DNA of 16,761 bases from Escherichia coli (GCF_003334255.1 NZ_QOWU01000077.1); one strand, 5' to 3'; positions 16,013 to 16,689 are shown, counted from the stretch's first letter. The notes: generated by a model not told the origin, from the sequence alone. A program made the numbers and translations.

Positions 16013-16387
16013 ATGAAGAAAATCATTTGTCTGGTCATTACACTACTAATGACACTCCCCGTTTACGCGAAGTTAACTGCCCATGAAGAAGCCCGCATCA
16101 ACGCCATGCTGGAGGGATTAGCACAGAAAAAGGATTTGATATTTGTGCGCAACGGTGATGAACATACCTGCTATGAAGCGGTTTCTCATCTGCGTCTGAA
16201 GCTCGGCAATACCCGTAACCGCATTGACACTGCCGAGCAGTTTATTGATAAGGTTGCTTCGTCGTCATCGATTACTGGGAAGCCGTATATTGTGAAGATC
16301 CCCGGTAAGAGCGATGAGAACGCACAGCCTTTTTTACATGCGTTAATTGCGCAGACGGATAAAACGGTGCCTGCGGAAGGAAATTAA
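16013..16387 (+). CDS. yfeK: Uncharacterized secreted/periplasmic protein YfeK, 124 aa
   Basis: 124-aa ORF with an N-terminal signal peptide ([20 protein letters not shown]); AAGGATAAGG Shine-Dalgarno upstream; recognised as YfeK. Confidence 0.85.
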
Positions 16388-16419
16388 TCCGCTTTGGGAA
16401 GGCATTTACAGGAGGTAAC

Positions 16420-16689
16420 ATGAAAAAACGCTTTATTTATCACGATGAAAAATCGAATAAATTTTGGTGGATAGATTACGAAGGGGATAGTTTAGCTGTC
16501 AACTATGGCAAGGTAGGTAGTATTGGTAAATTCCAGACAAAAGAGTTCGATAATGAAGAACAGTGTCTGAAAGAAGCCAGTAAATTGATTGCCGCAAAAA
16601 TGAAGAAAGGCTATCAAGAAGATCCAAAGTTTAACTTCATGGATCGCTACTATTTTGATGATGAAGAAATTGGGTTACATGTTAGGTAA
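16420..16689 (+). pseudogene. yfeS: yfeS (WGR-domain protein) truncated after about 88 native codons by an IS1 insertion
   Basis: ORF MKKRFIYHDEKSNKFWWIDYEGDSLAVNYGKVGSIGKFQTKEF... (WGR-like N-terminus) runs into the IS1 terminal repeat that begins at 16685; the final codon (AGG) and the stop (TAA at 16687..16689) are supplied by IS1 sequence. From recall the intact product is considerably longer (about 244 aa). Confidence 0.65.

Follow-up and report, generated by a model that had tools for sequence, protein, structure and literature searches.

At the 3' end of the window analyzed here, a 16,761-nucleotide (nt) stretch of Escherichia coli DNA (GCF_003334255.1, NZ_QOWU01000077.1), lie the genes yfeK and yfeS, the second of which is cut short by the insertion sequence IS1 (Table 1). 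A description of this DNA made before any database search (hereafter, the sequence-only reading) had named the two genes a probably co-transcribed two-gene module without assigned function, dispensable in this lineage, with nothing to suggest defence or mobility. That reading had the genes, their 32-bp spacing and the truncation by IS1 right: the open reading frames (ORFs) are where they had been placed, the sequence is identical to that of K-12 up to the IS1 junction, and the IS1 end matches known copies. The module does not survive comparison with other genomes, and the locus is best explained as two unrelated genes that share one sigma-E-dependent transcript.

There are no mismatches to K-12 between 15909 and 16684, and 16013-16684 can be aligned up to yfeS nt 265. 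From 16685 onward the DNA reads as the inverted repeat of IS1, GGTAATGACTCCAACTTATTGATAG..., just as annotated IS1A copies do; 16685-16761 is identical, in the same orientation, to the annotated IS1A ends at the comparison loci L001 and L002, and the terminal repeat together with its adjoining sequence identifies the segment as IS1. The window ends at 16761, before the second IS1 junction, and any retained 3' part of yfeS would lie beyond it. The yfeS stump (G+C 34%) encodes the complete WGR domain and the linker, and the C-terminal domain is entirely lost. The product of the truncated ORF is 88 native residues plus Arg, with the last two bases of the Arg codon and the TAA stop (16687-16689) supplied by IS1. 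IS1 parts the WGR domain from the C-terminal domain with its invariant residues T90 to G195; the yfeS allele of the window is almost certainly null, and yfeK and its promoter are untouched. We regard this structural description of the genes and of the yfeS/IS1 junction as virtually certain. The K-12 yfeKS unit (b2419-b2420) has the same genes, the same promoter motif and 100% nucleotide identity up to the IS1 junction; however, in K-12 an intact 244-codon yfeS is followed by a repetitive extragenic palindromic (REP)/bacterial interspersed mosaic element (BIME) and a MarA site before cysM (PMC5684230), whereas the window's copy is interrupted after nt 265. Taken by itself, the locus in this window is ordinary: a known pair of y-genes, the accessory one of which has been knocked out by IS1 in a routine way.

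Table 1. Features of the yfeK-yfeS locus in the window, and IS1 insertion sites at this locus (numbers with L are our handles for comparison loci)
Feature	Position	Strand	Basis or remark
Sigma-E (RpoE) type promoter of yfeK(S)	15952..15979	+	Direct reading, motif count, literature
yfeK, intact, 124 aa	16013..16387	+	ORF listing, direct reading
yfeK signal peptide, residues 1-19	16013-16069		A-x-A/K cleavage site
yfeK-yfeS spacer, 32 nt	16388..16419	+	yfeS Shine-Dalgarno AGGAGG at 16410-16415
yfeS 5' remnant, nt 1-265 (codons 1-88 plus one base)	16420..16684	+	100% identical to K-12
IS1 end, first 77 nt, with terminal inverted repeat	16685..16761	-	Transposase genes on minus strand
IS1 site	intergenic, -30 to -21		L003 and many ETEC O6:H16; ORF intact, cut off from sigma-E promoter
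IS1 site	yfeS nt 29-36		L101
IS1 site	yfeS nt 176-183		L100 (IS1X2)
IS1 site	yfeS nt 246-256		L002
IS1 site	yfeS nt 265		This window
IS1 site	yfeS nt 552-560		L001

The promoter upstream of yfeK is of the sigma-E type and nearly consensus. Its -35 element GAAACTT (15952-15958) and -10 element TCAAA (15975-15979) are separated by a 16-nt spacer and end 34 nt before the yfeK ATG, which agrees with a GGAACTT-like -35, a TCAAA-like -10 and the 16-nt spacing expected upstream of a sigma-E-dependent gene. The window contains a single copy of the core motif AACTT-N16-TCAAA, compared with 0.04 copies expected by chance. Published work places yfeKS in the sigma-E regulon (PMC2685091, PMC11502571, PMC3326320) and treats the two genes as one sigma-E transcription unit (PMC2685091, PMC11502571); both rise together with rpoE upon loss of a restriction-modification system (PMC2685091). 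We found neither a sigma-70-like promoter nor an intrinsic terminator in the K-12 yfeK-yfeS interval, which makes co-transcription plausible. Thus, the co-transcription that the sequence-only reading had called probable is supported by the literature and by inspection of the sequence. In this arrangement yfeS is a separate gene that has a strong ribosome-binding site to itself and would be transcribed by read-through from the promoter of yfeK.

These same features could be taken to mean that the two genes are a functional envelope-stress module, in which a periplasmic protein and a cytoplasmic partner work in one pathway and which was lost here as dispensable. The 32-bp spacing with no terminator between the genes, their co-induction with rpoE as one annotated unit, and the occurrence of the pair in a second genus, Pseudocitrobacter, are what such a module would predict. 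However, the phyletic pattern largely refutes it. Three 499-nt segments of the K-12 locus, which overlap one another, served as probes against 5426 complete E. coli genomes. The 3' part of yfeK was present in 5396 of them, and yfeS in 1387 (25.6%). Carriers of yfeS are a minority of E. coli (K-12 and B strains, enterotoxigenic E. coli (ETEC) O6:H16 and similar) together with Pseudocitrobacter, which alone among the other enterobacterial genera examined shares yfeS downstream of yfeK; the Klebsiella and Salmonella loci examined have no yfeS, and other genes follow yfeK there. In yfeS-negative strains (e.g., O157:H7, L012 and L013), homology to K-12 ends about 10 nt before the yfeK stop, and yfeK is a gene of 122 codons whose stop lies 2 nt from the stop of the convergent cysM. 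YfeK is therefore found without YfeS in most E. coli, in Klebsiella and in Salmonella.

The reverse holds for YfeS. In a scan of one genome per species, covering about 100,000 species, we kept the best 80 loci of YfeS relatives, and only one of these, that of Pseudocitrobacter, had a neighbour recognized by a YfeK hidden Markov model (HMM); this HMM was built from enterobacterial sequences and could miss very distant DUF5329 members. The 79 other loci had no DUF5329 neighbour. Composition and evolutionary rates also differ strongly between the two genes, and over-expression of yfeK halts growth, whereas over-expression of yfeS has no effect (PMC2685091). Neither co-occurrence nor adjacency across genomes is that of a conserved two-gene module, since the pair is limited to 26% of E. 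coli plus Pseudocitrobacter, and we consider a shared pathway very improbable. The lack of a conserved pairing is explained by the origin of yfeS, in all probability a cassette of one gene that was gained horizontally. Caution is in order: at this locus, neither a common operon nor common sigma-E control is a sound guide to a common function.

The slot between yfeK and cysM is itself variable in Enterobacteriaceae (L007 4398-4793, L008 4376-4726, L009 3481-3888). In Klebsiella it holds a SnoaL/DUF4440-like gene and in Salmonella a 116-codon ORF without a Pfam match; in Pseudocitrobacter, a SnoaL-like gene lies upstream of yfeK and yfeS downstream.

By both composition and sequence divergence, yfeS has the look of an import. 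Its G+C content is 39% (37% at third codon positions, and 34% in the part coding for the WGR domain) compared with 46-56% in neighbouring genes. Between K-12 and Pseudocitrobacter, yfeS is 95% identical at the nucleotide level (90% at third positions), whereas yfeK is 80% (58%) and cysM 91% (76%) identical; the YfeS proteins of the two genera are 94% identical. The segment present or absent as a unit is about 0.96 kb, includes the downstream REP/BIME element, is common to E. coli and Pseudocitrobacter, and is flanked in both by short ATTAATCC direct repeats. Outside these two genera the next relative of YfeS is 65% identical, and all others are at most 58% identical. The latter come from Paenibacillus, Bacteroides, Dysgonomonas, Lysinibacillus, Clostridium, Fusobacterium, Neisseria, Eikenella, Moraxella, Pseudomonas, Campylobacter, Exiguobacterium, Porphyromonas and one Methanomassiliicoccaceae metagenome-assembled genome (MAG), a very patchy distribution over largely host-associated taxa. 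It is highly probable that yfeS is accessory and horizontally transferred. The family probably moves horizontally among gut and oral bacteria of several phyla, and the yfeS segment would have landed between yfeK and cysM as a mobile accessory gene.

One observation complicates this history: the ...AEGN tail of YfeK alleles from yfeS-positive strains resembles the tails found in other genera, so the presence of yfeS could be ancestral, or a recombination tract could have been imported. YfeK ends in ...VPAEGN where yfeS follows it (E. coli K-12, Pseudocitrobacter P0098) and in ...VPAQ in yfeS-negative E. coli; YfeK of Pseudocitrobacter faecalis (P0107) also ends in ...VPAQ. From these sequences, the C-terminal alleles of YfeK appear to track yfeS status across genera, a hint that whole alleles, including the 3' end of yfeK, are swapped by recombination. 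Two simple routes, repeat-mediated deletion and insertion with target duplication at the ATTAATCC repeats, were tried, and neither reproduces the sequence of the yfeS-negative allele. Candidate mobile carriers were also rejected. In E. coli, the only plasmid match (70% identity) is to pZ0117EC0005-3, a 50-kb 'plasmid' record (L102) in which the chromosomal ptsI-cysA region (ptsI-crr-pdxK-yfeK-yfeS-cysM-cysA) recurs with many frameshifts, most likely as an artefact of assembly or sequencing; the 'plasmids' of Fusobacterium and Listeria are megabase replicons, and the phage matches are short, unannotated Listeria fragments.

Several further details of these segments may be recorded. In K-12, the spacer between yfeS and cysM (L010 2985-3172) contains a REP/BIME pair and GCAACAACTGTTAAA, both of which lie in the indel segment and both of which are also in Pseudocitrobacter; GCAACAACTGTTAAA is reported as a MarA site, detected by chromatin immunoprecipitation between yfeS and cysM in ETEC H10407 (PMC5684230). 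In Dysgonomonas sp. 25 (L005/L022, 5001-5732), a YfeS homologue is co-directional inside an apparent tryptophan biosynthesis operon, between an MFS (major facilitator superfamily) gene and trpC/trpF/trpA-like genes, as a single cassette among housekeeping genes. The Methanomassiliicoccaceae archaeon MAG, a gut methanogen bin, encodes a YfeS that is 49% identical (L044 4008-4712), which reflects either inter-domain transfer or a binning error.

The interruption of yfeS in the window is one of several. Alignment of IS1-bearing alleles to K-12 revealed six independent IS1 insertion sites in about 800 bp, in both orientations and involving different IS1 variants (IS1A, IS1X2); the spacer corresponding to 16388-16419 is an IS1 target in other strains too (L003 and many ETEC genomes). 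This makes the stretch around yfeK and yfeS a local hotspot for IS1. The flanks of every insertion match K-12 at 100% identity, which indicates recent events. Of the six sites, five are in or beside the 5' part of yfeS with 34% G+C. IS1 prefers AT-rich targets, and the placement of these sites fits that preference. The window's allele has the hallmarks of ordinary IS1 inactivation, with a canonical IS1 end abutting yfeS and sister alleles that carry 8-9-bp target duplications; it is unusual only in the local density of six independent sites in about 800 bp. The exact IS1/yfeS junction of the window had no true match in the 5426 complete E. coli genomes: the 56 matches that span 80% or more of the query are junctions of IS1 with other loci, at about 85% identity.

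Recurrent IS1 strikes, absence from 74% of E. coli and the lack of an over-expression phenotype (PMC2685091) are compatible with E. coli yfeS being a functionless passenger, a decaying or neutral import, under selection in neither direction, whose insertions reflect nothing but the AT-rich taste of IS1. However, the integrity of the gene in its carriers makes this improbable. Among the 1387 yfeS-positive genomes, the three probe segments are contiguous in 1348, 1381 and 1382; the bulk of the deficit is the intergenic ETEC insertion, and ORF-breaking insertions occur in about 1%. In other words, the gene body is uninterrupted in about 99% of carriers (1381-1382 of 1387). Furthermore, a knockout phenotype has been reported (PMC11502571), and the 94% protein identity between genera, together with conservation of the family across phyla, points to purifying selection on yfeS. 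IS1 insertion at this locus is recurrent, and yet disruption remains rare among carriers. The proposed dispensability is trivially true, because 74% of E. coli lack yfeS; insertions that disrupt the ORF are rare in strains that have it.

YfeK is readily classified. It matches Pfam DUF5329 (PF17263) with an E value of 5.6e-31 and the NCBIfam PRK10318 equivalog (NF007646) with 276.7 bits against a cutoff of 171, which makes it a member of that family. Its N-terminus is a typical Sec signal peptide, the cleavage site of which is kept in homologues, and homologues with 65-85% identity occur throughout Enterobacteriaceae, where the gene is inherited vertically. The best-supported account is that YfeK is a small periplasmic or secreted DUF5329 protein, core to enterobacteria and part of the envelope-stress regulon. 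A structure search found no PDB relative of YfeK or of the C-terminal domain of YfeS, a literature search for 'DUF5329' returned no paper, and the papers that name yfeK or yfeS give no function for either, in agreement with the sequence-only reading. A PADLOC scan of both proteins for known anti-phage defence systems gave no match at E values up to 1.

YfeS has two parts. Residues 9-71 match Pfam WGR (PF05406; E value of 1.2e-17), which places the protein in this family, and the N-terminal 72 residues superpose on PARP WGR domains and on Bacteroides fragilis Q64V53 (PDB 2ra8), as expected of a PARP1/3-type fold. The AlphaFold (AF2) model, built from a 46-sequence alignment, is a single compact unit (predicted local distance difference test (pLDDT) 95.9; predicted template-modelling score (pTM) 0.92) in which a four-stranded WGR domain is confidently predicted to pack against a helical domain some 160 residues long. 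Among the invariant positions are T90, H92, Y104, P113, G115, D117, G119, D121, K192 and G195, held in the motifs TSHPxF, PFGSDEGxD and AFGQIKITG. No Pfam family was found in residues 72-244 or in 44 stand-alone proteins consisting of this domain (YfeS-C), and no NCBIfam model covers it. A suspected resemblance of the PFGSDEGxD motif to DUF4259 was not supported by the Pfam or NCBIfam scans. YfeS-C is thus recognized here as a protein domain without a Pfam or NCBIfam model.

A YfeS-C profile retrieved 678 cluster representatives among 1.84 billion proteins. The architectures are WGR plus YfeS-C, tandem WGR plus YfeS-C, YfeS-C alone (165-190 aa), and fusions to DUF4253 (four cases) and DUF4240 (one case); an N-terminal Imm26 match is weak (E value of 0.15). 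Stand-alone YfeS-C proteins carry the database label 'MolR family', an unverified name given by WGR similarity. YfeS shares the WGR domain with PARP1/2/3 and with bacterial WGR proteins such as MolR/YehH (WGR plus DUF4132); however, it lacks the PARP catalytic domain, LRR or DUF4132, and its C-terminal partner is a distinct, unmodelled helical domain. The AlphaFold database lists yfeS fragments from Shigella flexneri, so an origin of the window's allele in Shigella is possible. In Listeria monocytogenes NCTC7974, a stand-alone YfeS-C of 184 aa (31% identity) is encoded between rlmD and a shikimate kinase gene (L103 2986-3540). In the same species, the hypervariable lmo0443-lmo0449 hot spot contains a single-gene insert, LMOf2365_0481, described as carrying a 'DUF often associated with WGR' (PMC5541211); our Listeria match is at another locus, and that insert may be a further stand-alone YfeS-C protein.

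What distinguishes the family is the company that its members keep. Across 75 loci we found no conserved YfeS neighbour beyond genus-level synteny, although immunity families recur. We collected 150 proteins encoded within two genes of YfeS at 46 non-redundant loci, assigned them to Pfam families and tabulated the top 20. The commonest were SMI1_KNR4/SUKH_5/SUKH_6 (4-5), ankyrin (4), DUF4253 (3) and Imm51 (3), whereas among 150 control proteins encoded three to five genes away only housekeeping families were at the top. SUKH, Imm10, Imm16, Ank or DUF1963 neighbours were found at 16 of the 75 loci, in at least three phyla (Bacillota, Bacteroidota and Fusobacteriota), with single-sequence seeds. 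In Paenibacillus, for example, YfeS is followed by Imm10, DUF2199 and DUF2750, the last of which is Imm16 (PMC3482391), and a second Paenibacillus locus has two SUKH genes and DUF1963; in Lysinibacillus, a SUKH-Imm51 fusion is encoded two genes from YfeS.

The clearest case is a Bacteroidales homologue, P0026, which is 54% identical to E. coli YfeS and whose position differs among the three distinct arrays of small, co-directional genes that contain it (L097-L099). All three arrays lie behind one XerC/D/integron-integrase-like recombinase (99.5-100% identical), have a G+C content of 32-34%, and carry Imm10, Imm19, Barstar, SUKH, Macro and DUF4304. Operationally, rAID-1 clusters are defined by a 5' XerD-like recombinase, co-directional genes and a G+C content of at most 41% (Ross et al., bioRxiv 10.1101/471110). 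L097-L099 fit this definition by recombinase type, gene direction and G+C, the published identity of at least 44% to BF9343_RS08045 being a further criterion, and they share with rAID-1 clusters the presence of known immunity families. They likewise agree with the heterogeneous polyimmunity loci next to recombinases that have been described (Zhang et al. 2012, PMC3482391). Like the immunity proteins of such loci (SUKH, Imm10, Imm16, Imm19, Imm51, Imm-Ank), YfeS is small, cytoplasmic, patchy in distribution and laterally mobile, and its homologues occur in tandem co-directional arrays with these families, sometimes beside XerC/D-type recombinases. The earlier statement that nothing suggests defence or mobility is contradicted: yfeS is poor in G+C, bears the signature of lateral transfer, and has relatives in polyimmunity and rAID-like arrays.

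These likenesses belong to the relatives. Residence in polyimmunity loci was found for about 20% of the relatives' loci; in contrast, neither a recombinase nor an array is present at the E. coli locus, and its yfeS is solitary between housekeeping genes. In E. coli, yfeS has pdxK, yfeK and cysM as neighbours, and no toxin gene was found beside any YfeS homologue, although no search was aimed at toxin families. The text of PMC3482391 does not include YfeS, WGR or YfeS-C among its immunity families ('WGR', 'MolR' and 'COG3831' have no occurrences), and no publication that connects WGR or YfeS with immunity loci turned up in our literature search.

Because the family recurs among polymorphic-toxin immunity genes, including rAID-1-type arrays, YfeS is most likely an orphan immunity-type protein. 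This cytoplasmic protein would bind and neutralize an incoming interbacterial toxin. This function is assigned by genomic context, that is, by guilt by association, and we propose it tentatively, as possible at somewhat less than even chances. The composite picture, in which a core yfeK is joined by a mobile, orphan immunity-like yfeS riding on the yfeK promoter, comes close to an even chance in our judgement. It is more doubtful, though conceivable, that the family as a whole is an immunity family that has so far escaped cataloguing, is spread widely by lateral transfer and acts against an interbacterial toxin.

Several observations weigh against an immunity role. About 80% of the loci have no recognizable immunity neighbours, and many homologues, including that of E. 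coli, stand alone among housekeeping genes. No toxin domain was present among the top 20 neighbour families, and no search was aimed at toxin families. Neighbouring genes were called by simple ATG-to-stop heuristics, and the enrichment was judged against an internal control (neighbours three to five genes away) rather than a genome-wide background. The strongly conserved polar residues of YfeS-C (T, H, D, D, K) would suit an enzyme or ligand site equally well. Finally, induction of yfeS with the sigma-E regulon holds no pointer to toxin immunity (PMC2685091), and deletion of yfeS lowers the boric-acid minimum inhibitory concentration from 100 to about 45-50 mM, an effect that is partly complemented (PMC11502571).

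The main rival to immunity draws on these last points. YfeS could be a 'mini-MolR', a nucleic-acid- or ADP-ribose-binding protein that senses stress or regulates the response to it, with its WGR domain binding a nucleic-acid end as in PARPs and its C-terminal domain transducing the signal or catalyzing a reaction; placement in variable arrays would then be incidental to mobility. The invariant polar residues, the boric-acid sensitivity of the deletion strain, the sigma-E control and the 'MolR family' labels on stand-alone YfeS-C proteins are all consistent with such a factor. However, those labels are annotation by WGR similarity, and a stress factor leaves unexplained both the enrichment of immunity families among immediate neighbours and the residence in rAID-like arrays. 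We therefore consider it rather unlikely.

These comparisons recast yfeS: it is not a partner of YfeK but an accessory mobile cassette, and its family keeps company with interbacterial immunity genes. If the immunity interpretation is true, this would be the first PARP-type WGR domain used in bacterial toxin neutralization, and K-12 would hold a sigma-E-expressed orphan immunity gene that has been a y-gene for decades. This provides a testable hypothesis for an uncharacterized K-12 protein and for an unmodelled domain, and it would provide a candidate for the catalogue of orphan immunity genes of gut bacteria.

Lastly, tandem or near-tandem YfeS paralogues were observed in Flavobacterium foetidum (L037 5992-7615) and in a Bacteroidales MAG (L061 5494-7383). 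Paralogous expansion is typical of immunity families.

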